A program made the translations under genes and the position numbers. 64,000 bases of DNA, from assembly GCA_028818695.1 (NCBI GenBank), contig JAPPNK010000011.1, positions 72,572 to 136,571 on the forward strand, written 5' to 3'. Source of the stretch: Candidatus Poribacteria bacterium. GTDB lineage: Bacteria > Poribacteria > WGA-4E > GCA-2687025. This document shows positions 6,797 through 53,832 of the stretch, piece after piece. Numbering within the stretch: the first letter of the stretch is position 1; each line of letters starts with the position of its first letter. The notes beneath the pieces were generated by a model. It saw nothing but the letters and a program-made list of their open reading frames with translations, was not told the origin of the DNA and ran no database searches.

Positions 6797-8104
6797 ATGA
6801 AAGCGAAAATGCGAACGCTCATTGCAATCTTCTCATCCCTCTTCCTCGCCGCGGCATTGACAAGCTGCGACGACCTTCGATCCATCCTTGACCCTGACAT
6901 GGAGACGCCGACAGCTCCCACTTTGAAAATTGGCATCATCCAGCCTTCTCAGTACTACATCGGCTTCCTCCATGCAGCCGAACTGGCGCGCCAAGAAATC
7001 AACGCCGGAGGCGGCGTCCTCGGCAGACAAATTGAGTTCGTCATGCGCGACAACCAAGGATCGGACATTTTCCCCACGCCCGAAAAAACCATTGAAGCGG
7101 CGCATGACCTGATCGCCAATGAAGGCGTCGCGGCGATTCTAGGACCCATTTTCTCCACCAACTCCATCGCAATGGGCAACGCCCTGACTGAAGCGGGCTT
7201 AGCCGTGCCGCTGCTTCCGGGGTCCACATCCCCGGTCGTCACGCAAACGCATTCGCATTTCGTACTCGCCGCGTCGAACAACCATCTCCATGCGACTGTT
7301 CTTGCCCAGTTCGCGGCGATGGAGCTGGGCGCTGAGACCGTCGGCGTCTCCCTGCAGGCGGGCGACGTCTACTCGGAAGTTGTGACGCGCGCGTTTGTGG
7401 ACGACTTTCGCAGCGTCGGCGGCAATGTGAGCTCCATCGCTAGCTATGAGGTGGGAACGCGCGACTTATCAGCGCAGATTCAGGTGCTAATGGACGACAA
7501 TCCAGACGCCATTTTCCTCCCCAGCTTCGCGCCTGAAGCTCCTCTGTTCATTCAACAGGCGCGCGCGGCGGGCTACGAAGGCGTCTTCATCGGAGCCGAC
7601 GGATGGGACGACGCATTGCAGTTCTACTCCACGCTGGACGACAACGCCCCGCTCAACGGCTCCTACTACACAACCAACTACTTCCCCGGCGGAGACGATC
7701 CGACCGCAAATGCGTTTGGAGACGCTTTCATGAGCGCTTACGGCGTCATCGCCGATGGCATCGCCGCCAACGGATACGACTCCCTGATGCTGCTCGCCAA
7801 AGCGATTGAAGCCGCCGGAGGAGGCGAAACACACGACGGCATGGACGACGGAATGTACGGCGACGATTCGATGATGTCCATGGAGATGCCCCACGCCGAC
7901 GCCGTTCTCGATGCGCTGGTTTCGATTGAAGGCTACCGCGGCGCGACCGCCATCTCCCATTTCGATGAAAATCGAATGGCAGTGAAAGACCTTATCATCT
8001 TGAAGATTCAAGACGGCATGCCCACGTTCCATTCCATATGGACGAATATGCAGGGCGGCGAAGGAAATGGCGGCGGATACGACGACGGCAATCCCAACGA
8101 GTAA
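6797..8104 (+). CDS. ABC-type substrate-binding lipoprotein, LivK family, subfamily C, with Met/Asp-rich insert
   Basis: Start chosen at the ATG at 6797 (MKAKMRTL), which has an AAAGGAA Shine-Dalgarno; the ATG at 6755 would overlap the previous gene. Lipobox LTSC. Has a C-terminal extension and the insert GMDDGMYGDDSMMSMEMPH. Confidence 0.8.
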   Translation: MKAKMRTLIAIFSSLFLAAALTSCDDLRSILDPDMETPTAPTLKIGIIQPSQYYIGFLHAAELARQEINAGGGVLGRQIEFVMRDNQGSDIFPTPEKTIEAAHDLIANEGVAAILGPIFSTNSIAMGNALTEAGLAVPLLPGSTSPVVTQTHSHFVLAASNNHLHATVLAQFAAMELGAETVGVSLQAGDVYSEVVTRAFVDDFRSVGGNVSSIASYEVGTRDLSAQIQVLMDDNPDAIFLPSFAPEAPLFIQQARAAGYEGVFIGADGWDDALQFYSTLDDNAPLNGSYYTTNYFPGGDDPTANAFGDAFMSAYGVIADGIAANGYDSLMLLAKAIEAAGGGETHDGMDDGMYGDDSMMSMEMPHADAVLDALVSIEGYRGATAISHFDENRMAVKDLIILKIQDGMPTFHSIWTNMQGGEGNGGGYDDGNPNE

Positions 8105-21102: not shown

Positions 21103-21179
21103 TGGTGGGCGGTAGTGGACTTGAACCACTGACCTCCTGCATGTCAAGCAGACGCTCTAGCCAGCTGAGCTAACCGCCC
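21103..21179 (-). tRNA. tRNA-Val (anticodon GAC)
   Basis: Hand-folded cloverleaf GGGCGGT..GCTCAGCTGG..TCTGCTTGACATGCAGA..GGTTCAAGTCC..ACCGCCCA with encoded CCA. Anticodon loop TTGACAT. Confidence 0.8.
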
Positions 21180-21184
21180 AAATA

Positions 21185-21259
21185 TGGAGGCGACGGTCGG
21201 ACTCGAACCGACGAATAGGAGATTTGCAGTCTCCCGCCTTACCGCTTGGCTACGTCGCC
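21185..21259 (-). tRNA. tRNA-Cys (anticodon GCA)
   Basis: GGCGACGTAGCCAAGCGGTAAGGCGGGAGACTGCAAATCTCC...GGTTCGAGTCCGACCGTCGCCTCCA, anticodon loop CTGCAAA. Confidence 0.8.
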
Positions 21260-21278
21260 GTGAACCGGCAAAGAAAGT

Positions 21279-21353
21279 TGGGGCGGGCGACGCGATTTGA
21301 ACGCGCGACTTCAACCTTGGCAAGGTTGTGCTCTACCCCTGAGCTACGCCCGC
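21279..21353 (-). tRNA. tRNA-Gly (anticodon GCC)
   Basis: GCGGGCGTAGCTCAGGGGTAGAGCACAACCTTGCCAAGGTTG...GTTCAAATCGCGTCGCCCGCCCCA, anticodon loop TTGCCAA. Confidence 0.8.
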
Positions 21354-23553: not shown

Positions 23554-26500
23554 TCAGTACCTCATGATCGTTTCATGTAAATTCAACAACACCCGCGCAA
23601 CCGACGTCCAAGCCGCCAGCTCAACAACGTCCAAACCTTCAGGCGCGCCGGACGCCCCGATCGACGCCAGCGCCGCCGCCCCCTCCGCGTCTTCAGCATA
23701 CGACGCCGCATGCTTCGCGTAAAGCGACGACATCGTCTCCATCTCTTCAGCAGTCGGAGCGCGGGAAAGCGCCTGACGGTACGCCCACTTGATGCGGTCG
23801 TTCGGCGTCTCCGCCTCATAACGCATGATGCGCGCCGCAAACCCTTTCGCCGCCTCCACATAGGTCGGGTCGTTTAGAAGAACCAGAGCCTGCGTCGGCG
23901 TGTTGGAGCGGGAACGCTGCGCCGCGCATTCCTGACGGCTCGGAGCGTCGAACGCCGTCATGCTCGGATGCGGAAAGGTGCGCTGCCAGTGGGTGTACAG
24001 CCCGCGCCGATACTGATTCTCATCTTTGTCATGCGCATAGGCGCGTTTTGGAAAATTCAGGTTGGAGTAGTACCCTTTCGGCTGATACGGCCGCGCGCTC
24101 GGTCCGCCGATTTTGGTCGACAACAAGCCGCTCAGGAAAAGCGCGTTGTCGCGTATCATCTCCGCGTCCAATCGGCGCGCCGATTGACGCGCGAGCAGGC
24201 GGTTGTAAGGGTCTCTCTCGCGCAGCGCCTCCGCTTGGCGCGACGACTGCCGATACGCGCTGGAGGTTGCAATCAGCCGAACCATATGTTTCACATTCCA
24301 GCCGCTGTCCATGAATTCAACGGCGAGCCAGTCGAGCAGCTCAGCGTTGACGGGCGGTTCTCCCTGCGCGCCGAGATCGTCCAGAACGCGCGACAGCCCC
24401 TCGCCGAAGAAGACCGCCCAGAGGCGGTTCACAAACGCGCGCGCCGTCATCGGATTGTTGCGCGCCACAAGCCAGTTTGCCAGGTCCAAGCGCGTCGCCC
24501 GACGCAGATTGACCCCCCGCATCGCCGGCAAAAACGTCGGCGTGTTCGGATACACCACCTCGCCGGTGTCGTCCTGCCAGTCGCCGCGGTTCAGGATGCG
24601 CATAATGCGCGGCGGTCCCGAAACGGTCGTGATGCAAAACGCGATATCCTTCGACACTTCGGCGCGCCGCTTGCGCAGCGTATCCAGCTCCGAACGAATG
24701 AGCGACAGCTCAGGAGCAATGGAACGGTAGTAAGCGTCCAACGTCTCCTCCTGCGCCGCTGTGCGAACGGCGACCGGAGCCGATAGCGCCCTTACCGCAT
24801 TGTCCGAAATGCCTTGACGGGCAATCTGCCCCTCGGTCGTCTGAACGCCGGCCTCGTCCCAATACGCCGTTCCGCCAAACTGCGTGAACGCCATCCCGTT
24901 CACCTCAACGCCGGGCTTCAATCCGACCGCTTCGGCCGGCGCTTCCAGACGAACCCACTCGCCGAGAGCCGGCAACGCTCCCATAGCCCGATGCGCAGGC
25001 GTGTCGGTTCCAATCCCGCCGTATTCGATCACATCCTCGCCCCAAAAAGCGCGGCTCTCCCAGCCCTTCGTGTGGAACTGAAGCATCACGGCGGACGGCG
25101 GATTTTCTGGATCCAGCCATATATAAACGTAAAACAAGTCGCCCTTGCCGACCTTCACTTTGCGAGACGCCTCTTTGAAGAGATGCTGCGTCAGCTGTCC
25201 GTCGTTTGCTGTTTGCTTCCAGGAGCTTTTACCGCGGAACACAGGTCCCTGGTCAGCGTTGACCGCTTCCCATTTGCCTTCCTCCTTGCCGCCGGGTCCC
25301 TGCGGCGCAACGCGCTCATCGTCTATCCAGACCCAGTCCATGCGCTTGTCGGAGGCGAGGCGGGCGCTTGTTTCCGCCTCCCATTCAGCTCGCTGCGCCA
25401 ACAGTTCAGGTCGATCCTCGTCGTACAGCTCTTGAAAACGCTGGATCTCCGCGTCGATTTCCGTCAGGGCCTTCGTCTGCTCCTCCGTCGGCAGCTCTAT
25501 GATCGGCTCCCATTTGCTGCGCCCTTGATACACGCCGCGCTCTTCAATGTCCGCAAAGAACGCCGCGAAGCTGTAAAAATCCTTCGCGGTGTACGGATCA
25601 AATTTATGGTCATGGCACTGAGCGCAGCCGACGGTCGCGCCCATCCATACGGTCGACACGGCGCGAACGCGGTCCGCCGCATAGATTGCATGATACTCCT
25701 TCGCCTGCGCGCCGCCTTCTGCCGTCGTCTGATTCAGGCGGTTGAACGCGGACGCAACGCGCTGCTCAACCGTCGCGTTCGGCAACAGGTCGCCCGCCAA
25801 GTTTTCCCGCGTGAAGCGGTCATACGGCATGTTCTCGTTGAACGCGCGAATCACATAGTCGCGGTAGGGCCAGATGTTCACATTTTCGTCCGAATGGTAG
25901 CCCGACGTGTCCGCATACCGCACAAGGTCAAGCCAGTGCGTCGCCATCCGCTCGCCGTAGGCGGGCTTGCTCATGAGCCGGTCAACCAGCGCCTCGTAGG
26001 CGTTCGGGCGCGCGTCGTTCATATAAGCGTCCGTCTCCTCCGGCGTCGGCGGAAGACCCGTCAGATCGAACGCGAGGCGGCGAATCAGCGCGCGCTTGTC
26101 CGCCTCTGGGGACGGCTGAAGCCCCTCCGCCTCCAGACGCGCCAAGACGAACCGATCAATCGGATTGGACGGCCAGCTCGCGTTTTGAACCTGCGGCTGC
26201 GCGGACCGCTTTGGCGGAACATACGCCCAATGCTCCTCCCAAACAGCTCCCTGACGCACCCATTCCGTCAGCGTTTCGATCTGCTCAGGCGCGATCGGGC
26301 GGGGCGCATGCGGCGGGGGCATGCGGAAGTCAGGATCGGAGCTCCTGATCCGTTGAATGAGAACGCTGTTGTCAGGGTCGCCGGGGAGAATGACCGAGTA
26401 GCCGTTCGTTTCGGCGAAAGCGCCTTCCTTTGTGTCTAGACGCAGCCCCGCCATCCGCTGATTCGCGTCGGGGCCGTGGCATGCGTAGCATTTATCCGAA

Positions 26501-42189: not shown

Positions 42190-42192
42190 TCA
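42170..42192. repeat. Possible solo arm of the MITE-like repeat (AAGTTGGGACATT core)
   Basis: A 13-nt core identical to the terminal arm. No second arm was found nearby. Confidence 0.25.
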
Positions 42193-42260
42193 GCGCCCGC
42201 GTTTCGGATACAATAGAAGCGGTTCCCGATAAGACGAATGCGAATAATGAGGATGATTCC

Positions 42261-42674
42261 ATGTTGATGACGCTAATCTTGCTACATTTGCTGACAGCGG
42301 CGGGCTGGTTCGGCGCGTATTTATCGGCGCGGGCGGTGTGCTGCGGAAGCTTGACGCTTGAACGGGCGCGCGCCGCCCGCTTTTTGACGCTGCGCATTGA
42401 AATGCCGCTTGCTGTGTTGACTCCCTGCTTCGGGCTGATCCTAAGCGGCTTGCGCACAGAAGTGTGGACGCAGGGATGGTTCCATGCCAAACTGACCGCG
42501 TTCCTGCTGCTCTACGTTCTGCTGATTCTGGACGCGCGCCGCTCGCGCCGATGGATCGAAGCGCTGGAAGCGGGGGAGGCGCCCAGCCGCGGCGGTTTTG
42601 CGGTCGCATGGGCTTTGGGGTCGCTCGCGTTCATCGCCGTTTTTGTTTGCGCTAAAGTGAAATTCGGGATTTAA
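42261..42674 (+). CDS. Small integral membrane protein (4 predicted TM helices)
   Basis: Four hydrophobic segments. No recognisable motif. Confidence 0.5.
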   Translation: MLMTLILLHLLTAAGWFGAYLSARAVCCGSLTLERARAARFLTLRIEMPLAVLTPCFGLILSGLRTEVWTQGWFHAKLTAFLLLYVLLILDARRSRRWIEALEAGEAPSRGGFAVAWALGSLAFIAVFVCAKVKFGI

Positions 42675-42741
42675 CGAAAATAGACCGATCCTTTTCCGCT
42701 CTGCGGCGTTTCATAAGATACAGGCAGGACGAGAGCCGTAT

Positions 42742-43308
42742 ATGGGATGGGATCGGTTTCGCGCAAGCGACGAAGAACTGATGGAACGGACGCGCGACCA
42801 TGACGACCATCAAGCGTTCGCGCTGTTGATGAAGCGGTGGGAGGCGCCGGTGGAGCGGCTGTGCTACAGAATGCTCGGCGACGCGCACTTGGCGGAGGAT
42901 ATGCGCCAGGAGACGTTCGCGCGGCTGTTCGCATCCCGCAGCCGATACACGCGCCGCGCCAAGTTTTCAACCTACATCTGGCGCATAGCGATCAACCGCT
43001 GCCTGGACGAACTGCGGCGCAAGCGGCGCGAAACGGAGGCGATGGAGCGCATGGACCCGCCGACCTTCGCCGCCCCTAGCGCCGAGGCGGAGCTGATTCA
43101 GCGGGAAGAGGCGGAAGCGGTGCGCCGGGCGGTGATGTCGCTGGACGAGAAATACCGCGCCGTCGTCGCGCTTCGGCATTACGAGGGGCTGAAGTTTCGA
43201 GAAACGGCGGAGATTTTAGACATACCGGTCGGAACGGCAAAATCGCGCATGGCAGAGGCGTTGAACCAACTGGCGCGGCGGTTGAAGCCGCTGTTGCGCA
43301 GGCGTTAG
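42742..43308 (+). CDS. ECF (sigma-24) RNA polymerase sigma factor
   Basis: Region 2 (YIWRIAINRCLDELRR) and region 4 helix-turn-helix (ALRHYEGLKFRETAEILDIPVGTAKSRMAEAL). Confidence 0.9.
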   Translation: MGWDRFRASDEELMERTRDHDDHQAFALLMKRWEAPVERLCYRMLGDAHLAEDMRQETFARLFASRSRYTRRAKFSTYIWRIAINRCLDELRRKRRETEAMERMDPPTFAAPSAEAELIQREEAEAVRRAVMSLDEKYRAVVALRHYEGLKFRETAEILDIPVGTAKSRMAEALNQLARRLKPLLRRR

Positions 43309-43325
43309 AAGGAAAGGGAGCGTTC

Positions 43326-43997
43326 ATGGATTGTCCAACGCATGAGGAATGGGCGGAGTATCTTTACGGCGAAGCGGTCGGCGAGGAACAGGAAAAGCGG
43401 ACGGTTCACCTGCGAAACTGCGCGGAGTGCCGATCTCTAGTGGACGGCTGGCGCGAGACGATGTATGCGCTGCATCAGTGGGAGTCGGCGTCTCCGCCAA
43501 GACGCCAAGCGCAGCTCGCTTGGAGAACGGCGCTGCGGTGGGCGGCTGCCGCCTGTTTGGCGCTCGCGCTCGGATATGCGGGGGCGGCTCTTGCGGTGAA
43601 ACATGCCGATTCGCGTCCGTTGGATGAAGCGGCTGTAGAAAGCCTGCGTTCCTCCCTTCATGAGGAGCTGCGCGTCTCTTTAAAAAAAGAGCTGACGCAA
43701 GAGATGGCGAATGAGATGGTCGTCACAATGGACGCCGCCCGCCGGCAGCTCTACGCCGACCTATACGCAGCCTCGCGCAGGGATATGGCAGCGTTCTCAA
43801 CCGAAACGCAGAAGGAGCTGCAGCGCTGGCTAGACCAGTTCAACCACGAATATATCGAAGACCAAGCGCAAAAAGAAAGCTTTTTAGCGGAATGGGCGAA
43901 CAGCCGAGACCGACAATACGCCCAAGACATGGAAGCGCTGCAGACCGACGTTCGCCGCTTGGCGAACATGAGGCTGTACGTCTCCCAGCGTGAGTAA
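43326..43997 (+). CDS. Anti-sigma factor (zf-HC2, single TM)
   Basis: N-terminal H..C..C zinc-finger (HLRNCAECRSL). Central TM segment (LRWAAAACLALALGYAGAALAV). Periplasmic coiled-coil C-terminus. Confidence 0.8.
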   Translation: MDCPTHEEWAEYLYGEAVGEEQEKRTVHLRNCAECRSLVDGWRETMYALHQWESASPPRRQAQLAWRTALRWAAAACLALALGYAGAALAVKHADSRPLDEAAVESLRSSLHEELRVSLKKELTQEMANEMVVTMDAARRQLYADLYAASRRDMAAFSTETQKELQRWLDQFNHEYIEDQAQKESFLAEWANSRDRQYAQDMEALQTDVRRLANMRLYVSQRE

Positions 43998-44045
43998 GAT
44001 CTGAAACGGATGGAACGAAATCGGCGAACAAAGAAAGGAACGAGC

Positions 44046-45659
44046 ATGCGAATCATCACAATCCTGACGCTGCTGGCATGCTGGACGGCGGCAGAGGCGT
44101 CTTCGGAGAAGACCGCGCCGGTTGAAACAACAACAAATTGGGCGGTCGGCGGCTCTGAAGGATTGAACCGCTTGCTTCAAAACGCGCCTGCGCCGCTGTT
44201 GAGCGCTGAGAAGCGCTCTCCGGAACAGGTTTACGAAGTTTTAGAGGACATGCGCGTCATGGCCGCCGCGTTTTCGCAGCTGATCGCCAAAACGTTTCCT
44301 GACGACCAGAATCTACAGAATGCGGGCGTACGCTCCTACTATCTTGGGGGAGGGTGCTTGTTCCTGGCGGATTTGCCGTACCATGTCGCCGGGGGCGAAG
44401 CGCAGAGCGCGGATCAACCGACCGACAAGGCGTGGGACGCTGCGCGGCGAAAGTTGGGTTACGCCCCGCGCGCGCCCATCCCGCTCGACAGATCGAAGCG
44501 GCTTCAAGAAGCGATTCGGTCGGCGTTGAAACTGGCAAAAAATATCCGCCATTTCGAAACGGACGATTTCATCGCGGTCGCGGCGGTTGGCGGGGAAATG
44601 TCCGCTCCATCGATATTGACGGGGCGCGCCTCTTTCGGCGACCTATCAGCCGTTGAATTCGCCTCGGAATGGACGGGCGGCAGCTCGGCGCTGGCGGACG
44701 CGGCGACGCTGTCGCGCGTGATGGATACTCTCCTGCGCAGCAAGCTGCGCGATCGATACAGCGACAGCGATATAAGGTTTTACCTGGTCAGCGATCCGTC
44801 CGACAACGGGGTGATCGTTTTTCCTGTTAATAAAAAGATGAGCAGCTTCTACCTGAAAGGGTTCGGCGCGCTTTTCTTTGTGGACGTTCTGTACCCTGTC
44901 GGCAAAAAGGGCGCGGGAAGCGCGCAGCCCGCCGACCTTTGGCAGGAGGCGCTCAGGGAAATGCAGAGCAGGCGCATGCGGCAGGCAGACAAGGGCGCCG
45001 GAAGCGCGCTGTCCGCCGACCTTTGGCAGGAATCGCTCAAGGAGATGCAAAGCAGGCGCATGCGGCAGGCAATCGCGGTTGATTATCGCGGCTTTGGGCG
45101 GTCTCTCATGAAACTCACGGAGAAGGAAGCGCAGGAGCTCTTGAGTCATACGGCAGACGCGGTCCTTGAATCGCTGCGCTACAGCCCGCGCATCCGCGGC
45201 ATGGGTCCGGACGAGGCGCTGGTTGTGTCGATACGCGGCAGCGACGGTTCTTGGCTCGTGTTTCGGACGTTGAAGCGGCATGCGGACGCTTACGGCGCCG
45301 GCGCTCTGGACATCAACGCGTTTCGAGAAAAAGTGTCGATTAAGATCGACATGCGCTCGTTGAGCTGGGAGACGGTTATGCAGTCGCCCGCTCCGCCGGT
45401 AGACGCGCTGACGCTCACCATCAGCGAAGACGGCAGCATGACGCTGGACGGCAAAGCAGTGACGATGGCGCAGCTGAAGCTGCGGTTCAACAGCGCGCCT
45501 GCAGAAAAGAAAAAACAGCTTATCATTCGATCCAGCCCCAAAGTGGGTCATGAGCAGATCGTGGAGGCGATGGATTTGGCGAACCGGGCTGACATCCAGA
45601 AGATCGGCCTCGCAATAGAGGCGAGGAAGCCCAACGTCACGAAAGGAGACGGGAAATGA
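44046..45659 (+). CDS. Secreted protein, uncharacterised family (paralog 1), with ExbD/TolR-like C-terminal domain
   Basis: Start at the ATG at 44046 (MRIITILTLLACW signal peptide) behind AAAGGAA. The C-terminal roughly 80 aa (TLTISEDGSMTLDGKAVTMAQLKLRF...LIIRSSPKVGHEQIVEAMDLANRADIQKIGLAIEA) align with the ExbD/TolR periplasmic domain. Confidence 0.75.
   Translation: MRIITILTLLACWTAAEASSEKTAPVETTTNWAVGGSEGLNRLLQNAPAPLLSAEKRSPEQVYEVLEDMRVMAAAFSQLIAKTFPDDQNLQNAGVRSYYLGGGCLFLADLPYHVAGGEAQSADQPTDKAWDAARRKLGYAPRAPIPLDRSKRLQEAIRSALKLAKNIRHFETDDFIAVAAVGGEMSAPSILTGRASFGDLSAVEFASEWTGGSSALADAATLSRVMDTLLRSKLRDRYSDSDIRFYLVSDPSDNGVIVFPVNKKMSSFYLKGFGALFFVDVLYPVGKKGAGSAQPADLWQEALREMQSRRMRQADKGAGSALSADLWQESLKEMQSRRMRQAIAVDYRGFGRSLMKLTEKEAQELLSHTADAVLESLRYSPRIRGMGPDEALVVSIRGSDGSWLVFRTLKRHADAYGAGALDINAFREKVSIKIDMRSLSWETVMQSPAPPVDALTLTISEDGSMTLDGKAVTMAQLKLRFNSAPAEKKKQLIIRSSPKVGHEQIVEAMDLANRADIQKIGLAIEARKPNVTKGDGK
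44907..45074 (+). repeat. 84-bp x 2 in-frame tandem duplication inside paralog 1 (KGAGSAQPADLWQEALREMQSRRMRQAD repeat)
   Basis: The two units read directly and differ at a handful of positions (about 90% identical). Confidence 0.8.
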
Positions 45660-47086
45660 GTCGAAGGTGGATTGCGGCGCTGCTGGCGCTGACGGCATGC
45701 GCATCGGTCTTGGCGGCGGAGGATATGGAAAGTTTTGACGACATCTACCTCATAGAGACAGACGACGAGGTGGAAGGTTTGTCTGAGGACGATTTCGCGA
45801 TTAGCGGTCCTTTCAATGTGGCAATCACTTTTGACGAAGATTTCGGAGGTTTGTCTGAGGACGACTTGCACATCGAAATCGGGGACGACGGCGTGTATTC
45901 GCTGACGCTTAAGCCCGTTGAACAGGTCGCCAGTTTTCAAATTGTGTCGCCGCTTCTTGTTGGCGTAGAGGACGGGCGGAATCCAACCCAGGCGCTCGAA
46001 ATCTTTGAGGACATGAACGTGTTCGGCGCGATTCTGTCCGATCTTGTTCAAAAGGCGTTCCCGGAAGAGCATTTTTTTGCGGACAAGTTGCGCATCCGTC
46101 CTTTGTATCTAGGGCGCGGCTGCCTCTATATGATGGACTTTCCGTATCCGCTGGCAGACTCGCGCCCGTCAAGGGCGGACGCCGAAATGGACGCGGTCTG
46201 GGATGCGGCGCGGCAAAAACTGGGTCTCGGCGCTGACGAGACCTACGACGCAGAAAAGGCGTCCCAATTCCAAAACGCGGTTCTGTCGGCATTCAAACAT
46301 GCCTCGAACATGCGCCATTTTGCGGACGCCGATTTCATCGCCGTATCCGCCATAAGCGGTAGCGGCATTGCGCCGACCCACTTCTCCGCCCGCGCCGAGT
46401 TTGGGAGTCTCGCCAGCCCCTCAACCTCCTCTGAACGCATGGACGCTTCAACGGCGCAGGGCGGCGCAGTCGTCATGGCGCGCGTGCTGGATAAAATGCT
46501 CCAGGAGAAGCTGGGCGACAAATATAGTCTGGGAAGATCAGGGCGGCTTTTTACGGGCAACCCGTCGGCCGGCTCATCATGGGTCCATCTCGGCAAGGGG
46601 GCGGGCGGCGTCTATCTAGAGGGGTACGGCGCCCTGTTCATTGCCGACGCGCTGTTCCCCCTAGCTCCGCGCAGCGAAGAGGACCTGTGGGAGCAATCGG
46701 CGCGGGAGCTGCGCGCCGGCAGACGCGCCAACCGCTTGAGAACCTCCGACGTCAGCGGATGGAGAGGTTTGGGGGATGGAAAGACATACACCGCTACAAT
46801 AACTCCTTCACTCAGCGATTCGTCAGCCCCCCCCGTTATTACAACAATCGATTCACCGTATGGAAACGAGGGACAGTTAAAGGAGCGGCTGATGGAGGCG
46901 GTTTTGGACGCGCTCCAATACGCCTCGCGCATACAGGGAATGGACGCGGAGGAGCATGTTGCCGTCTTGATACGCGGCATGGAGAACACGCAGATGTCGT
47001 TCCGCGCCTTGAAGCGCGATGTGGACGCCTACGGCAAAGGCGAATTGACGCGCGGGGAGTTTCGAGGAAAGTTGCAGCTGAAATGA
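45656..47086 (+). CDS. Secreted protein, uncharacterised family (paralog 2)
   Basis: Signal peptide. Blocks shared with paralog 1: FEDMNVFGAILSDLVQKAFP, YLGRGCLYMMDFPY, VWDAARQKLG, MRHFADADFIAVSAISG. ATGA overlap with paralog 1. Confidence 0.75.
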   Translation: MSRRWIAALLALTACASVLAAEDMESFDDIYLIETDDEVEGLSEDDFAISGPFNVAITFDEDFGGLSEDDLHIEIGDDGVYSLTLKPVEQVASFQIVSPLLVGVEDGRNPTQALEIFEDMNVFGAILSDLVQKAFPEEHFFADKLRIRPLYLGRGCLYMMDFPYPLADSRPSRADAEMDAVWDAARQKLGLGADETYDAEKASQFQNAVLSAFKHASNMRHFADADFIAVSAISGSGIAPTHFSARAEFGSLASPSTSSERMDASTAQGGAVVMARVLDKMLQEKLGDKYSLGRSGRLFTGNPSAGSSWVHLGKGAGGVYLEGYGALFIADALFPLAPRSEEDLWEQSARELRAGRRANRLRTSDVSGWRGLGDGKTYTATITPSLSDSSAPPVITTIDSPYGNEGQLKERLMEAVLDALQYASRIQGMDAEEHVAVLIRGMENTQMSFRALKRDVDAYGKGELTRGEFRGKLQLK

Positions 47087-47187
47087 AGAGAAACGATCAC
47101 ACGCTCATACAGAAAACAAAGCGGACAAGGTCAGATCGTCGATGCAGAAGCAATCGACAATCGCATTTACGGGAAGGAGATAAGACA

Positions 47188-48501
47188 ATGAAACATCTGT
47201 TTTGGACGGCATTGTGCGCGGTTGCGCTGTGCGCGCCCGGTCATCTTTTGGCGGAGTCGGCTCCGAAGCCGCTCGCGCTCATGGACGCCGAGGCGCTTTC
47301 GGCGGAGGAGGCGCGAACGACCGCCGACGCTACAGCGGCGCTGGAAGCGCGCCTTGAAAAACGCCTGCGGCAAGCGATCAACAAGCCGTTCTTCAACGGC
47401 GACGCCTTTTACCTGGGAAGCGCGGGCGTCGTTTTTGTCGCGAGGGTTCCATTCTTCTTGAACGGCGAGGCTGCGAACTCATCCGGCGATCTATGGGAGG
47501 AGGCGCGGCGCGATTTGACGCAAGGCGCCGACAAAAGCGCGGAAAGGACGGCGCTGTTGAAATCGGCGCTGGTTGAGGAGGTCCAAAACGCCGAATGGGA
47601 CGTCGAGTCTCTCGGTCCTCTCGCCGCCGTTGCGGTCGGCAAGGGGCATTCGATCTTGACCGTACGCAGGTCAGACGAGGTCTCTGTACAGTTCCACACG
47701 TTGGAAAACTCCCCGGCGCTAGAGGACGCGGCAACCATGGCGCGCGTCCTAGAAAAGACAGCGGGCGCGGACAACTCCGTCCACAACATCCGCGGCATTC
47801 CGATTGAGGGGTTCGGCATTCTGTTTGCGGCAGACGCGAAGATGCCGTTAGCGGCTCCGCCGCAAAACGACTCCGCGCAGACGCCGCTTGATACCGAAAC
47901 GCTCGAAGCGCAGAGCCACTTTTCAGAGTTGGACAATCTCTTGCGCGATCTTTTCGAGGAGAATTTGCCGGAAGATTTGGCGGTTCGCCCGTTCGTTCTG
48001 CGCCTAGAGGAGTTTCCAGAGCTGGACTTGAACTTCGAAGCGTTCAACTTGAAGCGGGAAGATTCCACGCAGGTTCCGTCTGAGCTGGAAGCGCAGATAA
48101 AAGGCCTTGTGGAAAGGATGCGTTCGTCTCGCTATGATACGGACGACGCGCTTCCGTTCGCGCTTCCGCGCCCGTATGACGCCGGCAAAGCGGAGGCGCT
48201 GACAACGCGGCTGATGGAAGCGTTGAAGCATGGCGCGCGCCTGCGGCTTGAACCGACGGAGACGGTCGCCGTCGCCATTCTCGGCGCCCCGACCTTTGAA
48301 ACGACAACGACGAAGACGCATGACAACTCCGAGGACGGGATTCAGTACCGCGCGTCGGTGACGGTCCTGTCGGGGCATGCGTTGACAAACACGTTCATGG
48401 CGTTTCGCGTTTCAAAAGATTCCATCGATCGGTTCGCGGCAGGGGAGCTGACGCTGGAGGCGCTGAAGAACGAAGCGCGCGTCGTGACAGGTATAGAATA
48501 A
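47188..48501 (+). CDS. Secreted protein, uncharacterised family (paralog 3, divergent)
   Basis: Start at the ATG at 47188 behind GGAAGGAGA (MKHLFWTALCAVALCAP signal peptide). Shares YLGSAGVVFVARVPF, DLWEEARRDL and MARVLEK blocks with paralogs 1 and 2. The 46579-47187 part of the track ORF is spurious. Confidence 0.7.
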   Translation: MKHLFWTALCAVALCAPGHLLAESAPKPLALMDAEALSAEEARTTADATAALEARLEKRLRQAINKPFFNGDAFYLGSAGVVFVARVPFFLNGEAANSSGDLWEEARRDLTQGADKSAERTALLKSALVEEVQNAEWDVESLGPLAAVAVGKGHSILTVRRSDEVSVQFHTLENSPALEDAATMARVLEKTAGADNSVHNIRGIPIEGFGILFAADAKMPLAAPPQNDSAQTPLDTETLEAQSHFSELDNLLRDLFEENLPEDLAVRPFVLRLEEFPELDLNFEAFNLKREDSTQVPSELEAQIKGLVERMRSSRYDTDDALPFALPRPYDAGKAEALTTRLMEALKHGARLRLEPTETVAVAILGAPTFETTTTKTHDNSEDGIQYRASVTVLSGHALTNTFMAFRVSKDSIDRFAAGELTLEALKNEARVVTGIE

Positions 48502-48511
48502 AACGCTGGAA

Positions 48512-48540
48512 GGGCCGAGTCTGTTATTCAGACTCGGCCC
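48512..48540. terminator. Bidirectional hairpin terminator between convergent paralog 3 and metH
   Basis: Perfect 12-bp stem GGGCCGAGTCTG / CAGACTCGGCCC with a 5-nt loop. A T-rich tail (GTTTTATT) follows on the minus-strand reading. Confidence 0.55.
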
Positions 48541-51500
48541 CCGTCTTAAAGTAGCGCGCCTCCGGATGATGAAACGCCAGCGCCGACACGCTCGCTTCAG
48601 GGTCCATCATGTGCGACTCTGTCAGATGAACGTTGATGCGTTCAGGCTTTAGCAGCCGCCACAGCTTCGTCTGATCGCTCATGTCGGGGCATGCGGGGTA
48701 TCCGAAGCTATACCGCTGCCCGCGGTAGCGCGATTGCATGATCTCTTTCATGGAAATGTCCGGCGGGTCGGGAAAACCCCACATTGCGCGGATGCGGCTA
48801 TGCAGCTTCTCCGCAAACGCCTCCGCCGTCTCATAGGCGAGCGCGCCGAGCGCGTGCGACAGCAGATACTCTCCCCGCTCCTTCAGCTCCGCCGCCTGAC
48901 GCATGACCCCCTCGCCTGCTGTTGTCACAAACAGCGCCAAGTTGTCTAAGCCGCCCTCCCACCCGACCGGACGCAGATAGTCGGCAAGGCAGAGCCGGTC
49001 ATGGTCCGGCTGGCGCGGGAACTCAAACCGCTCAACCGCCGTCTCTTTAGAGGGGCTGAAGACGAGGATCGCGTCGCCGTCCGCAGCGGCGCCGAAGAAC
49101 TGATACGCCGCTCTCGGCTGTATCCAGTTGTTGACGGACGCCAGCTCCAGCGTCTTGCGGACAAGGTCCCGCAGTTTCAGCGCCTTCGGGTCGCCCTCCG
49201 CCAGGTTGCGCTCAAAGTTGCCGCGGTATCCGAGCGCCCGCCCGTAGAGCATCTGCGGGTTGATCCATTCAAACAGCGCGTCCAGATCATCCTCTACGAT
49301 ATGCGCGTTCAGATTGGGCGGATTCGGCGGGTCGACAGGTTGAACCGCTTTGCTTGGCTTACGCGGCGCCGAGCGCGCTTTCCGCTCCGTTTTGACGGGC
49401 TTCTTCTCCTCCGCTTTTCTGGGTTGAAGCAGCTCCGCCCGCTTCTCCTCGTCCATGAGCGCATTTGCAAGGGCAAGCCCTTCCATCGCGTCCTTAGCGT
49501 AAAAGGCGCTCCCCGTTGTGTAGGCGGGGTCGATGCGCGTCTCGGTGAACCGCTTCGACAGCGCCGCGCCGCCGACCAGTATCGGTATCGAAACGCCTGC
49601 GCTGGCAAGGTCTTCCGCCGTCGCAACCATCTGGTGCGCCGACTTTACCAAAAGCCCCGACAGCCCGATGATGTCCGGATCGCTCTCATGGAACGCTTGA
49701 ATGATCGCCTCCGGCGGCGCCTTGATGCCGAGGTTGCGCACATGGTAGCCGTTGTTCGTGAGAATGATGTCGACCAGATTCTTGCCGATGTCATGGACAT
49801 CCCCCTTCACCGTGGCGAGAAGAACCGCGCCGCGCGCGCGCGCCTCGCCGCCTGTCTCCATATGCGGCTCCAAATGAGAGACGGCCGCTTTCATCGCCTC
49901 GGCGCTCTGGAGAACCTCCGCCACAATCAGCTCATTGTTGTTGAAGAGCCGCCCGACCTCGTCCATACCGCTCATGAGCGGGCCGTTCACAATATCAAGC
50001 GGCGCGCGGCTCTGCAGCGCCCTGTCCAGATCGGCTTGCATGCCCTCCTTGACGCCTTCGACAATGCGCCGCGCCAGCCGTTCGTCCAAGGAGAGGCCGC
50101 TCCATTCGTCCGCCTGCTTCTTCGCTTTTCTTTTGCGGTAGAAGTCGGAGAATTCGGCGATCGCTTCGGGCGAATTGTCAAAAATAAGCCGTTCCGAGAG
50201 CTCCCGTTCCTTTTCGGATATGGAGGCGTAACGCTCAATCCGCTCTGTGTTGACGATAGCTAGATCAAGCCCCGCGTTCGCGCAGTGGTACATAAAAACG
50301 GCGTTCAGGATTTCCCGCCCCGCAGCCGGCAAACCAAAGGAAACGTTCGAGATGCCGAGAATCGTTTTTGTCTGCGGAAATTCCTCCTTGATCCGCTCAA
50401 CCGCCTCAATAGTGTACTTGCCCGCATGCGCGTAATTCTCATCCCCCGCCCCGATGGGAAACACAAGCGGATCCCAAATAATATCCTCTTCAGGCACGTT
50501 GTAATCAAGCGTCAACAGAGCGTGGGATCGGCGGGCAATCTCCAGCTTCCGCTCAACCGTAACCCCCATCCCCTGCTCAGGATCCTCGTCAATGGTCCCA
50601 ACAATGAAGGCGGCGCCGTACCGCTTCCCAAGCGGAACAACCTGCTCAAACCGCTCCTCCCCGTCTTCAAGGTTGATCGAGTTGATAATCGATTTCCCTT
50701 GACACATCTTCAACGCCGTTTCGATGACAGCAGGATCGGTCGAGTCGATCATGAGCGGCAATTTCACAATTTTTGTTAAACAGCTCATGAACGCTTGAAT
50801 GTCCTCCTGCTCGTCCCTGTCGGGGTCTTGGAGGCAGATGTCTAAGATATTGGCGCCGCCGCGCGCCTGCTTTCGCCCGATTTCAGCCGCTTCTTCATAT
50901 TTTTCATCCGCAATCAGCCGCTTGAACCGCCGGCTCCCAAGCACATTCGTTCTTTCGCCGACAAAATACGGCTTCCCGTCCTCTTCAATCTCAAGATACT
51001 CAAGCCCAGACACATGCGTTTTGGAGTATGGACGGACGCGGCGCGGCTTTTTACGATCCAGCATCTCGTTGAAGGCGGCGATATGCGCAGGCGTTGTGCC
51101 GCAGCATCCGCCGAGAGCGTTCACCCATCCGTTCTCCACAAACCGCTCCAGCGTACGGGTCATACTCTCGGGCGTTTCAAGGTAATGTCCATTCTCGTCA
51201 GGCAAGCCCGCGTTCGGAACGACCGTAACGCGCGTCTGCGCAAGCTCGGCGGCGGCGCGCAGTCTGTCCGTCATAAACGCGGGGCCGGTCGCGCAGTTGA
51301 GACCGACGCTGAACGCCGGCAGATGCTCCACTGCCGCAATCAGCGCCTCAATCGTCTGTCCAGCAAGCGCCGTACCCATCATCTCGATGGTGCCGGAGAT
51401 CATGAGCGGCGCCTGTATGCCCGTCTCATTCATCGCTCTCATGACGCCCAGCGCGGCCGCCTTCAGGTTGAGCGCGTCCTGCGCCGTCTCAAGAAACAGC

Positions 51501-51979
51501 ATATCGACGCCGCCCTCCAGAAGTCCGAGCGCCTGCTCCCAATACGCCTCTTCCACCTCGTCCCATGTGACGCCGCCAGTGAGCGAGATCGACCGCGTCC
51601 CAGGACCCATCGACCCGGCGACCAGCCGCGGCTTCGAGTCGGAATAGGCGTCCGCGGCTCTGCGGGCGATCTGCGCGGCAGCCCTGTTGATCGAAACCGC
51701 CTGCTCCTGCAGGTCGTACTCCGCCAGAACGACGCTGGTCGCTCCAAAGCTGTTCGTTTCGATGATGTCAGCCCCCGCCTCCAAAAAAGACCGGTGGATC
51801 TGTTCAATAGCTTCAGGCTTGACAAGGCACAGATGCTCGTTGCAGCCGTCCAGACTCGCCCCCCCAAAATCGTCGGGCGACAGATCCAGCGCCTGTATGC
51901 TCGTTCCCATCGCCCCGTCGATGAGCATCACCCGCTCGCTAAACATCTCTTCGATTTCGCGCGTCTTCCAAACAGCCAT
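48524..51979 (-). CDS. metH: Cobalamin-dependent methionine synthase
   Basis: 1151 aa with Hcy-methyltransferase, pterin-binding, B12-binding (DxHxxG region) and AdoMet-activation domains in canonical order. Confidence 0.9.
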   Translation of the reverse strand: MAVWKTREIEEMFSERVMLIDGAMGTSIQALDLSPDDFGGASLDGCNEHLCLVKPEAIEQIHRSFLEAGADIIETNSFGATSVVLAEYDLQEQAVSINRAAAQIARRAADAYSDSKPRLVAGSMGPGTRSISLTGGVTWDEVEEAYWEQALGLLEGGVDMLFLETAQDALNLKAAALGVMRAMNETGIQAPLMISGTIEMMGTALAGQTIEALIAAVEHLPAFSVGLNCATGPAFMTDRLRAAAELAQTRVTVVPNAGLPDENGHYLETPESMTRTLERFVENGWVNALGGCCGTTPAHIAAFNEMLDRKKPRRVRPYSKTHVSGLEYLEIEEDGKPYFVGERTNVLGSRRFKRLIADEKYEEAAEIGRKQARGGANILDICLQDPDRDEQEDIQAFMSCLTKIVKLPLMIDSTDPAVIETALKMCQGKSIINSINLEDGEERFEQVVPLGKRYGAAFIVGTIDEDPEQGMGVTVERKLEIARRSHALLTLDYNVPEEDIIWDPLVFPIGAGDENYAHAGKYTIEAVERIKEEFPQTKTILGISNVSFGLPAAGREILNAVFMYHCANAGLDLAIVNTERIERYASISEKERELSERLIFDNSPEAIAEFSDFYRKRKAKKQADEWSGLSLDERLARRIVEGVKEGMQADLDRALQSRAPLDIVNGPLMSGMDEVGRLFNNNELIVAEVLQSAEAMKAAVSHLEPHMETGGEARARGAVLLATVKGDVHDIGKNLVDIILTNNGYHVRNLGIKAPPEAIIQAFHESDPDIIGLSGLLVKSAHQMVATAEDLASAGVSIPILVGGAALSKRFTETRIDPAYTTGSAFYAKDAMEGLALANALMDEEKRAELLQPRKAEEKKPVKTERKARSAPRKPSKAVQPVDPPNPPNLNAHIVEDDLDALFEWINPQMLYGRALGYRGNFERNLAEGDPKALKLRDLVRKTLELASVNNWIQPRAAYQFFGAAADGDAILVFSPSKETAVERFEFPRQPDHDRLCLADYLRPVGWEGGLDNLALFVTTAGEGVMRQAAELKERGEYLLSHALGALAYETAEAFAEKLHSRIRAMWGFPDPPDISMKEIMQSRYRGQRYSFGYPACPDMSDQTKLWRLLKPERINVHLTESHMMDPEASVSALAFHHPEARYFKTGAESE

Positions 51980-51996: not shown

Positions 51997-53832
51997 TTAA
52001 GTTTGGAGCCGTATATGTTCAATCAGCTCAAGCGCCATGCTGTACCGCCGCAGCATCGGTATGATATAAATCCCCTTGAAGCCGATCTCAAGTATCTGGT
52101 CAATCTGCTCTTTGGCGATCTGGACGCCTTCTCGCAGAGCGGCGGCGGCGTCCGGCGCATTCGCCATGCGCCTCCGCGTTTCGTCCGATAGGTTGATGCC
52201 CGGCACCTCGTTATGAAGAAACTCGGCGTTTCGCGCGCTCACCAGCGGAATGACGCCGACAAACATTTCGATCTCCATCTCCGCCGTCTGCTGTTTCAGG
52301 TCCTGCAGAATATGAACGTCGGCGGGCGGCTGCGTCATGGCAAAGACGGCGCCGAGGCTCCGCTTTTTTTCAAGCCGGCGTATTTCGCCTGCCAGCTTGT
52401 GTCGATTCGGGTTGACGCCGCACCCGATGATGAACCGAGTCGGCTTATCGATCGATTCGCCGCGCAGGTTCTCGCCGGCGTTCAGGCGGTTCATCATATC
52501 GATCAGCCCAAACGAGTTCATGTCAAACACGGAGGAGCCTTCATGCCCCCCAAGCGACATCGGATCGCCGGTGATGGCAAGCACATGGTTGATGCCGAGA
52601 ATATACCCGCCCATCAGTTCCGACTGCTGCCCGATCAGGTTGCGGTCTCGGCAGGTGCAGTGGCAGATGGCGGGAAGACCCGCGACGCGCTGAATAAGCC
52701 GACTGAGCGCCCAGCTGCTCATTCTTGGGGACGCGAGCTGGTTTTCGGCGACGCTCACCGCGTCCGCGCCCGCCGCCGCCAACTTCTCGGAGGCGCGCAC
52801 CGCGCTGTCGACGTTCAGCCCCTTTGGCGGGTCCACCTCCACGATGATCTTCACATCCCGATCTTTGCGTTCAAGAAAATTCGGCGGCGGCGGAACGGCG
52901 GAGCTGAGCCGCTTGCTTTTGCTTCGCAGCCCCGTCTTGGAGCGGCTTGTCGATTTTCTCTTTTGCCTCGGCGTCGGCTCGCGCCGTCCGATCTGAGACC
53001 TAACGGCGCGGATATGTTCAGGCGTCGTGCCGCAGCATCCGCCGACAAGATTAGCCCCCGCCTCCGCCATTTTTATCGCCATCTCAGCAAAATACGGGAC
53101 ATTGTTCGCATAAATATACCGCCCCTCAACATAGGTCGGAAAGCTCGCGTTCGCGTGGGCGGCAAGCGGAGCCGTTGTCGAAGCGGCGAACGCCTGAACC
53201 GCTTTGAGCGCGGCGGTCGGCCCGCCCGTTCCGCAGTTGACGCCAACCGCGTCAGCCCCCGCCTCCAGCAGCGCCTCCACAATGCGCTTCGGCTCCGCCT
53301 CCTCCTGCGCGCTCGCCGCAATCTGCGCGATGACCGGCAAATCCGCGGCTCGATTCGCGGCGGAGACAGCCGCAGTCAATTCGTCAAGACGAACAAAGGT
53401 CTCAATGATAAAAGCGTCCGCGCCCCCCTCGGCGAGCGCGTCCGCCTGCTCCTCAAACACATCGGACGGGGAGCGGCTCTCCTGCGCCTTCGGATCGCCG
53501 GTCGGTCCGATCGATCCGAGAACATAGGCGCGGCCTGCAGCGGCTTCGCGGGCGATCTGCGCCCCGGCGATGTTGATCTGCCGCGTCTGATCGGCATGCC
53601 CCGCAGAGAGAAGCTTGACGCGGTTCGCGCCGAAGGTGTTTGTCTCGATGGTCTGCGCCCCCGCCTCGATATACTCTCGATGAACCTCCATAATGAGCCG
53701 CGGATTGGTCAGATTCAACAGATCGAACGCGGTCTCCAACGGCAAACCTTTTGTATGGAGATACGCGCCCATTCCGCCGTCGCCGACAAGTATTTCCGTT
53801 CGCATGCGCTCGATCAGGTTGCGCAGGGGCAT
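51997..53832 (-). CDS. Bifunctional homocysteine S-methyltransferase / 5,10-methylenetetrahydrofolate reductase (YitJ-like)
   Basis: N-terminal Hcy-binding domain (GDGGMGAYL...) fused to a C-terminal MetF/MTHFR domain (KIIVEVDPPKG...CHCTCRDRNLIGQQ). Confidence 0.8.
   Translation of the reverse strand: MPLRNLIERMRTEILVGDGGMGAYLHTKGLPLETAFDLLNLTNPRLIMEVHREYIEAGAQTIETNTFGANRVKLLSAGHADQTRQINIAGAQIAREAAAGRAYVLGSIGPTGDPKAQESRSPSDVFEEQADALAEGGADAFIIETFVRLDELTAAVSAANRAADLPVIAQIAASAQEEAEPKRIVEALLEAGADAVGVNCGTGGPTAALKAVQAFAASTTAPLAAHANASFPTYVEGRYIYANNVPYFAEMAIKMAEAGANLVGGCCGTTPEHIRAVRSQIGRREPTPRQKRKSTSRSKTGLRSKSKRLSSAVPPPPNFLERKDRDVKIIVEVDPPKGLNVDSAVRASEKLAAAGADAVSVAENQLASPRMSSWALSRLIQRVAGLPAICHCTCRDRNLIGQQSELMGGYILGINHVLAITGDPMSLGGHEGSSVFDMNSFGLIDMMNRLNAGENLRGESIDKPTRFIIGCGVNPNRHKLAGEIRRLEKKRSLGAVFAMTQPPADVHILQDLKQQTAEMEIEMFVGVIPLVSARNAEFLHNEVPGINLSDETRRRMANAPDAAAALREGVQIAKEQIDQILEIGFKGIYIIPMLRRYSMALELIEHIRLQT

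Follow-up and report, generated by a model that had tools for sequence, protein, structure and literature searches.

What do three related secreted proteins do when their genes follow directly on those of an extracytoplasmic function (ECF) sigma factor and its anti-sigma factor? The question is raised by a locus in a 64-kb stretch of DNA from a genome labelled Candidatus Poribacteria (the window; coordinates below are positions in it, unless preceded by a locus number). Five open reading frames (ORFs) on the + strand, at 42742-48501, encode the sigma factor, the anti-sigma factor and three secreted paralogs, which we call P1, P2 and P3 in gene order. The junctions between them are short or overlapping. 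A first-pass annotation, made from the sequence alone, had read this stretch as a five-gene, same-strand ECF cluster, and the ORFs together with the Pfam and TIGR02937 matches bore this out. We conclude that what is conserved is a three-gene set, or triad, in which sigma factor and anti-sigma factor are joined by one gene of the paralog family, and that the triplication of the paralogs and the ExbD-like domain of P1 are a lineage-specific elaboration of a narrow clade.

Conservation of the triad

Eighty metagenome loci were fetched with a single-module profile of the family and annotated with sigma, anti-sigma and family profiles; as the top matches of a single query (P0041), they yield percentages that describe mainly one subfamily. 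Upstream sequence of at least 300 bp was available before the first family gene in 58 loci, and 57 of these had an anti-sigma homolog there. It directly adjoined the family gene in 51 loci, with a 4-bp overlap in 20, and an ECF sigma gene stood directly before the anti-sigma gene in every locus with room for it (42/42). One extra secreted gene, encoding a DUF4932 or a Toastrack/DUF4097 protein, separated the anti-sigma and family genes in the six gapped loci; the single exception carried such an intervening gene too. Extra genes were seen in L023 (6304-7947), L075 (5863-7518), L049 (4877-5908), L025 (4525-5424), L048 (1477-2355) and L031 (2-751); the DUF4932 kind had an HExxH-like motif (HEFSH), the Toastrack/DUF4097 kind THNG repeats. 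Both may be optional accessory components of the triad system. Two tandem family genes were present in about 18 of the 80 loci, and three are present in the window, which holds no second copy of the triad.

Look-ups outside these loci extended the pattern qualitatively. In L087-L091 the triad was found amid unrelated flanks, as judged from the Pfam-annotated neighbours. L090 is a Verrucomicrobiae metagenome-assembled genome (MAG), and L091, a 7.05-Mb contig, represents the nearest outgroup to the window clade; its single family gene (P0013) has two modules and no ExbD domain. The window cluster itself belongs to the triad family both by matching the A4 profile (see below) and by its place downstream of a homologous anti-sigma gene. 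The first-pass annotation had proposed that co-occurrence with ECF sigma/anti-sigma pairs be checked. Because this synteny proved close to universal, in the narrow clade and in distant relatives alike, its phrase "uncharacterised envelope system under dedicated ECF control" is a fair description.

Could the paralogs nevertheless be chance neighbours of the sigma pair, adjacent through the ancestry of one clade, or the family be an artefact of low-complexity sequence? Within the narrow clade, L001-L005, a small membrane protein, the sigma factor, the anti-sigma factor, P1, P2 and P3 are all encoded beside metH. The whole neighbourhood, metH included, is syntenic there, and conservation within the clade therefore proves little. 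However, the adjacency of the triad persists with entirely different flanks and in different phyla. Moreover, reciprocal profile searches gave full-length matches of 80-120 bits across structured regions with an AlphaFold predicted local distance difference test score (pLDDT) above 90. Synteny across phyla and reciprocal matches refute this explanation, which we regard as almost certainly wrong.

Internal duplication in the paralogs

P1 and P2 are 35% identical (BLAST E 1e-67), P1 and P3 match with E 2e-8, and P2 and P3 with E 6e-6. The BLAST identities and the signal peptides confirmed the earlier assignment of three secreted paralogs. The shared sequence blocks listed in the first-pass annotation are real, mainly between P1 and P2, but P3 has fewer of them. 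By hydropathy, the hydrophobic segments of the three proteins are the N-terminal signal peptides only, plus a beta-hairpin in P3.

Residues 73-130 of P3 aligned with both halves of P1 in the BLAST comparison. We also used an independent profile, A4, built solely from distant single-module relatives. It matched residues 53-186 and 218-437 of P1 (101.6 bits), 110-247 and 255-474 of P2 (121.3 bits), and 99-232 and 328-434 of P3 (97.2 bits). The stretch of P3 that matches two sites of P1 and the double A4 matches show that every paralog consists of a single alpha/beta module duplicated in tandem, which gives the cluster six modules. The elements of the module run in the order long helix, beta-hairpin (YLxGxGxLF..P), disordered acidic loop, short Trp helix, long helix, two strands, two short helices and a last strand. 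AlphaFold modelled the cores of full-length P1 with pLDDT of about 80 (12-sequence alignment) and the module 2 core with pLDDT above 90 (121-sequence alignment).

P1 (537 aa, 44046-45659, +) consists of a signal peptide, module 1 (44202-44603), module 2 (44697-45356) and an ExbD/TolR-type periplasmic domain (45387-45620). An alternative start lies at 44010; ortholog calls begin at the MRIITIL start, at 44046. Tandem Repeats Finder reported an in-frame 84-bp tandem duplication inside module 2 (44907-45071, +; two copies, 90% identical), which doubles the conserved "DLW" helix (PADLWQE..REMQSRRMRQA). The duplication appears recent, because it is confined to the window and the 96%-identical ortholog P0001, and other orthologs are without it.

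The start of P2 (476 aa, 45656-47086, +) overlaps the stop of P1 by 4 bp. Its signal peptide is followed by an acidic N-terminal region, module 1 (45983-46396) and module 2 (46418-47077). The acidic, repetitive region (45656-45950) has a faint similarity to Big_12, a bacterial Ig-like domain (17.6 bits), and the P2 ortholog in L001 (9497-11011) scored 26.2 bits, just below the gathering score of 27. P2 ortholog lengths vary widely, from 476 to 593 aa. P3 (437 aa, 47188-48501, +; ortholog P0012) has a signal peptide, a divergent module 1 (~47365-47697) and a module 2 with long insertions (~47698-48489).

Size and distribution of the module family

An exhaustive profile search of 1.84 billion representatives with an ExbD-free core profile retrieved 1668 proteins (50%-identity clusters) at E ≤ 1e-3, 867 at E ≤ 1e-10 and only 7 at E ≤ 1e-30. 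A word-indexed search with P1, or with the P1/P2/P3 alignment, found nine P1 orthologs alone, all with the ExbD domain. With no fewer than 1668 clusters at that identity, the system cannot be called rare, only undescribed. Relatives are typically 300-420 aa long and combine a signal peptide with a single module and, towards the N-terminus, a stretch of coiled coil or low complexity; in many of them the tail is Gly-rich or of low complexity.

The first-pass annotation could name no family for the paralogs, and this held in every library searched. Pfam-A (2025) and NCBIfam 20 gave no match covering the cores of P1-P3 and none on about 20 scanned members. The precomputed Pfam field was empty for 120/120 listed relatives, nearly all of which carry the source name "hypothetical protein". 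For the paralog core, PADLOC 2 and PHROGs 4 gave no match and the best hit of a sequence-profile search of the PDB had E 0.29; for the module model, the best Foldseek hit had E 0.16, with nothing below 0.1. MucB/RseB (PF03888) matched the third gene product neither in sequence nor in fold. Moreover, neither the triad nor the family was described in the literature covered by full-text searches or in the main text of the ECF reclassification paper.

The near-invariant positions of the family are occupied mostly by glycines and by aromatic or aliphatic residues, together with D, R, K and D; no His, Cys or Ser is conserved. The family is therefore probably not enzymatic, as the lack of conserved catalytic-type residues in the alignments argues. 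Among 106 proteins that end at the module, 67 finish on a conserved C-terminal aromatic residue, and many single-module members stop exactly at a Tyr that follows the final beta-strand (..IFTY, ..ILTY), e.g. P0041, P0058, P0069 and P0116. We rejected this residue as a universal family feature, as many members are extended C-terminally and P1-P3 lack it. Tyr ends of this kind recall the aromatic C-terminal signals that PDZ proteases read.

Named organisms among the listed relatives are Phycisphaerales, Sedimentisphaerales, Planctomycetota and Verrucomicrobiae. One member, P0274 (HYT60836.1), is labelled Haliangiales (Myxococcota) in NCBI, all other named members outside the window clade being Planctomycetota or Verrucomicrobiota. 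The label reflects either a binning error or a family that reaches beyond the PVC-type phyla (Planctomycetota, Verrucomicrobiota and related phyla). The window clade has one species representative in 185,579 species genomes, a 3.95-Mb MAG labelled Candidatus Poribacteria. NCBI does not file Candidatus Poribacteria under PVC, and the PVC placement of the window implied in the first-pass annotation was accordingly dropped. The lineage is probably sponge-associated.

The sigma and anti-sigma factors

The sigma factor (188 aa, 42742-43308, +) matched Sigma70_r2 (PF04542, E 1.4e-17) and Sigma70_r4_2 (PF08281, E 6e-14) in Pfam and scored 88.7 bits against TIGR02937 in NCBIfam, where the cut-off is 42.9. 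No region 3 was reported in the Pfam and NCBIfam scans, as is required of an ECF (group 4) sigma-70 factor. No NCBIfam equivalog reached its own cut-off for this protein, which may belong to a numbered, still uncharacterised ECF group.

The anti-sigma factor (223 aa, 43326-43997, +) was recognised from its motif, its hydropathy and homologs in the same position. Its cytoplasmic zinc-type domain contains the motif H28-x3-C32-x2-C35 (HLRNCAEC, residues 28-35; 43407-43430). A single hydrophobic segment, residues 73-91 (43542-43598), forms its one transmembrane (TM) helix by hydropathy, and a mostly helical periplasmic part of about 130 aa follows (43599-43994). The earlier description of a zf-HC2 single-pass anti-sigma factor thus stands as to the motif and the single TM segment. 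The window protein was unmatched by zf-HC2 (PF13490) at E ≤ 1, its orthologs and relatives matched weakly, below the cut-off, and NF052375, an anti-sigma model, gave a weak match. The H-x3-C-x2-C motif is kept in L008, in L087-L091 and in the clade orthologs.

All triad anti-sigma factors are full-length homologs of that in the window. Two types of cytoplasmic N-terminus were observed, with homologous TM and periplasmic domains in both. The zinc type (MNHP..EEW..YLYGE...H-x3-C-x2-C) occurs in the window (43326-43997), L008 and L087-L091, whereas the cysteine-free type (MKENENILEKAVKAL...PPGPP) occurs in a sediment subfamily comprising L032 (4398-5093), L016, L040, L045 and L070. The periplasmic domain matches no described family in the libraries searched; the Pfam and NCBIfam scans found no recognisable ligand-binding fold in it, and Pfam found no FecR domain in the anti-sigma factor.

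A putative autoregulated promoter

The 67-bp spacer before the window sigma gene is almost invariant in the clade, and within it a block with the motif CCGATC-N16-CGTTTCA (42685-42713, +) is invariant in the intergenic alignment with L001, L002, L004 and L005. A bipartite motif, CCGA[TAC].-N16/17-CGT[TC]TAA, also precedes the triad sigma gene in more distant loci: CCGATC-N16-CGTTTAA in L091, CCGAAC-N17-CGTTTAA in L090, CCGACG-N16-CGTTTAA in L087-L089 and CCGACT-N17-CGTCTAA in L008 and L024. The site at 42685-42713 is the sole intergenic match of the bipartite motif in the 64 kb. Looser matches at 7808-7837 and 25038-25069 (-) lie inside long ORFs and were taken as chance. The sediment subfamily has a motif of its own, TGTAAT-N17-CGACTAAT, a variant of the form GTAAT-N17/18-CGACTA. 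In 565 kb, both strands counted, GTAAT-N15-19-CGAC[TA]A had 36 matches, of which 31 lay within 111 bp upstream of a triad sigma gene and two more at sigma genes whose called start lay too far upstream; none preceded a family gene or occurred elsewhere in the flanks (±8 kb).

Such a pattern is what one expects where an ECF factor drives its own gene from a promoter with a CGT-type -10 element, and 42685-42713 is a putative promoter of this kind. The first-pass annotation had suggested a search for an ECF promoter upstream of 44046, the start of P1; a motif was indeed found, but before the sigma gene and not before the family gene. A generic scan of the cluster for sigma-70 promoters and terminators was uninformative.

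The ExbD/TolR-type domain of P1

Residues 448-525 of P1, at the C-terminus of this secreted two-module protein, matched the periplasmic part of ExbD/TolR (PF02472) in both family model and fold. Positions 1-47 of the profile were unmatched and the only hydrophobic segment of P1 is its signal peptide, so that the domain is without the ExbD TM anchor, as the first-pass annotation had observed. The domain is absent from the outgroup protein P0013 of L091 and, by an empty Pfam field, from the 120 listed relatives outside the clade. In the P2-type ortholog P0011, a supposed ExbD-like extension (~500-593) was discarded, being non-significant (BLAST E 0.052, no Pfam match); it might be a second, degenerate appendage of this kind in the clade.

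The domain invites the idea that the system is coupled to TonB or Tol, i.e. that P1 ties it to TonB or to a proton-motive-force motor of the ExbB/TolQ type, in the manner of FecA-FecR-FecI. As in FecI-FecR-FecA, a sigma/anti-sigma pair is accompanied by a third extracytoplasmic component, and the C-terminal domain of P1 would supply the ExbD/TonB link. However, P1 lacks the TM helix that seats ExbD and TolR in the stator, and, unlike true ExbD/TolR stator proteins, it has no partner ExbB/TolQ gene. Among Pfam-annotated genes, none of the MotA/ExbB family (exbB/tolQ), none for TonB and none for a TonB-dependent receptor was found within 8 kb in L001, L002, L004 and L005. The cluster is also unlike FecI-FecR-FecA in that its anti-sigma factor has no FecR domain and that neither a TonB-dependent transducer nor exbB/tonB lies nearby. 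Furthermore, as the ExbD-like domain is missing from the outgroup and the listed relatives, it cannot explain the conserved triad. We consider such coupling very improbable, and the suggestion of a TonB or peptidoglycan connection in the first-pass annotation, which rests on this one P1 domain, stays speculative. By analogy with TolR, which binds peptidoglycan, the domain would most plausibly serve in docking to peptidoglycan or to another periplasmic protein.

Periplasmic partner or effector

In RseA/RseB/DegS, a third protein binds the short periplasmic domain of the anti-sigma factor and thereby gates site-1 proteolysis. We tentatively favour a comparable role here, a reading from sequence and synteny to which we give close to an even chance: the cluster would be one operon and an autoregulated three-component ECF module, with the family protein as periplasmic partner of the anti-sigma factor (RseB/MucB- or CpxP-like logic). 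The family protein would bind the periplasmic domain of the anti-sigma factor, stabilising or shielding the latter. An envelope signal would titrate or displace the family protein, after which the anti-sigma factor would be inactivated, probably by regulated proteolysis, and the sigma factor freed. The sigma factor would then re-transcribe the operon, restoring anti-sigma factor and partner and returning the system to its off state by negative feedback. In this lineage, the presumed partner gene was duplicated internally (two modules) and in tandem (three genes), and P1 gained its anchor-less TolR/ExbD-type domain.

The alternative is that the sigma/anti-sigma pair senses alone. The family proteins would then be the main or sole output of the regulon, non-enzymatic and protective or structural in the envelope (e.g. 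as a scaffold, as a binder of chaperone-like kind or as a layer associated with peptidoglycan), with no control over the anti-sigma factor. We judge this possible, if somewhat less probable. The only ECF-type promoter within ±8 kb precedes the sigma gene, which makes the family gene the only non-regulatory product of the operon. Family copy number varies by locus, Gly-rich or low-complexity tails are common, the window clade has six modules and a TolR-like, possibly peptidoglycan-binding domain, and genes of an envelope-stress type (Toastrack/DUF4097) are sometimes found in the same operon. An effector without a sensory role fits less well with the anti-sigma factor, whose short, helical periplasmic domain has no recognisable ligand-binding fold and is typical of proteins that need a partner or a protease. 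The frequent 4-bp overlaps between anti-sigma and family genes suggest coupled, stoichiometric synthesis. Moreover, the family gene is retained beside the periplasmic domain even where the cytoplasmic type of the anti-sigma factor switches, which supports the partner role.

Several observations weigh against a partner role. That the family protein binds the anti-sigma factor is a prediction from sequence, and natural fusions lend it no support: none of the 273 family proteins retrieved contained an anti-sigma domain. What looked like a fusion of anti-sigma and family genes, the ORF at L069 254-1780, proved an artefact, in which an ambiguous base N (X in the translation) masks a stop codon. Co-inheritance of the operon fits an effector equally well, and recurrent tandem duplication together with Gly-rich or low-complexity tails looks more like structural or effector proteins. 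In L092 (2566-4521), an intact two-module family gene (P0015, conserved by five cluster members) follows a 106-aa remnant of an anti-sigma periplasmic domain, and a sigma gene is lacking; either the triad is decaying here or this family member works without regulators. Since the gene is intact beside a decayed anti-sigma gene, the family protein may function without the regulators, as expected of an effector. The operon structure and the function of the promoter are also putative, and the percentages from the 80 loci reflect mainly the P0041 subfamily. It is possible that the two roles are combined, as in CpxP.

A more far-reaching version of the partner role appears doubtful to us. It would make the module family a novel kind of periplasmic co-sensor, one that controls the inactivation of anti-sigma factors in a major, uncharacterised ECF system of Planctomycetota, Verrucomicrobiota and related phyla. 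Each module would bind to the helical periplasmic domain of its cognate anti-sigma factor and let go of it in response to an envelope cue, multi-module paralogs bearing a TolR domain would integrate several cues or report the state of peptidoglycan, and the C-terminal Tyr of many members could serve as an inbuilt ligand of a PDZ-type site-1 protease.

Comparison with known systems

The arrangement resembles sigmaE-RseA-RseB of E. coli and AlgU-MucA-MucB of Pseudomonas, in which an ECF sigma factor, a single-pass class-I-type anti-sigma factor and a secreted protein are encoded in direct succession; for the window, autoregulation is suggested by the promoter motif. Unlike RseB/MucB, the third component is made of unnamed alpha/beta modules and is an unrelated protein, whose binding to the anti-sigma factor is predicted from sequence. 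Also unlike the sigmaE and AlgU operons, the cluster has no rseC-like gene, and its lineage is PVC-type and Poribacteria-labelled. CpxP and Spy offer a second parallel, as small, non-enzymatic periplasmic proteins under the control of a pathway that they may inhibit, and such behaviour would reconcile the partner and effector readings. However, CpxP works in a two-component system and is all-helical, whereas the module is ECF-linked and alpha/beta, and no homology between them was found.

The best structural matches of the module model were the extracytoplasmic Firmicutes lipoproteins CamS (3ib5, 3n2q) and DUF5037 (4gl6); as given above, no Foldseek hit fell below E 0.1. As judged from the model, the module would share with them a two-layer alpha/beta sandwich; CamS and DUF5037, like the window proteins, are secreted proteins of unknown function.

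Neighbouring genes

A small membrane protein (137 aa, four hydrophobic segments; 42261-42674, +) is encoded directly 5′ of the sigma gene in L001-L005 and is absent from that position in L087-L091. It probably lies outside the conserved unit, because its conservation upstream of the sigma gene is restricted to the narrow clade. The ECF-type promoter candidate sits downstream of its gene. The protein gave weak, sub-threshold matches to HemJ/UPF0093, DUF2214 and CopD. Upstream of the gene (42190-42260) we observed a conserved TTCGGATACAATAGA block with the sigma-70-like -10 element TACAAT.

On the other side, MetH, a B12-dependent methionine synthase (1151 aa, 48524-51979, -), and an S-methyltransferase/MTHFR fusion protein (611 aa, 51997-53832, -) are encoded convergently towards the end of the cluster, and every clade locus keeps the adjacency on the metH side. 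In the 64 kb, no riboswitch was reported by Rfam. The sole Rfam or ARAGORN matches in the window were three clustered tRNAs (Val-GAC, Cys-GCA, Gly-GCC; 21103-21353, -).

Implications

Planctomycetes and their relatives signal to a large extent through ECF sigma factors. To our knowledge, almost no planctomycete-type ECF sigma factor has a known input or output. The triad is widespread, compact and easily recognised, and it can be taken up from three sides: the unnamed third component, the periplasmic domain dedicated to it in the anti-sigma factor and the predicted promoter motif. The number of ECF sigma factors in these bacteria is about 40 per genome (PMC7826278). The architecture follows the established sigmaE/RseA/RseB pattern and overturns no concept; what is new is the unrelated third component. 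The findings should be useful to researchers of ECF signalling and of the PVC cell envelope. The window is an unusually elaborated example of a widespread, unnamed three-component ECF module, which gives a testable entry into the envelope signalling of poorly studied phyla, and the module itself is a candidate for a new domain family at the Pfam level.

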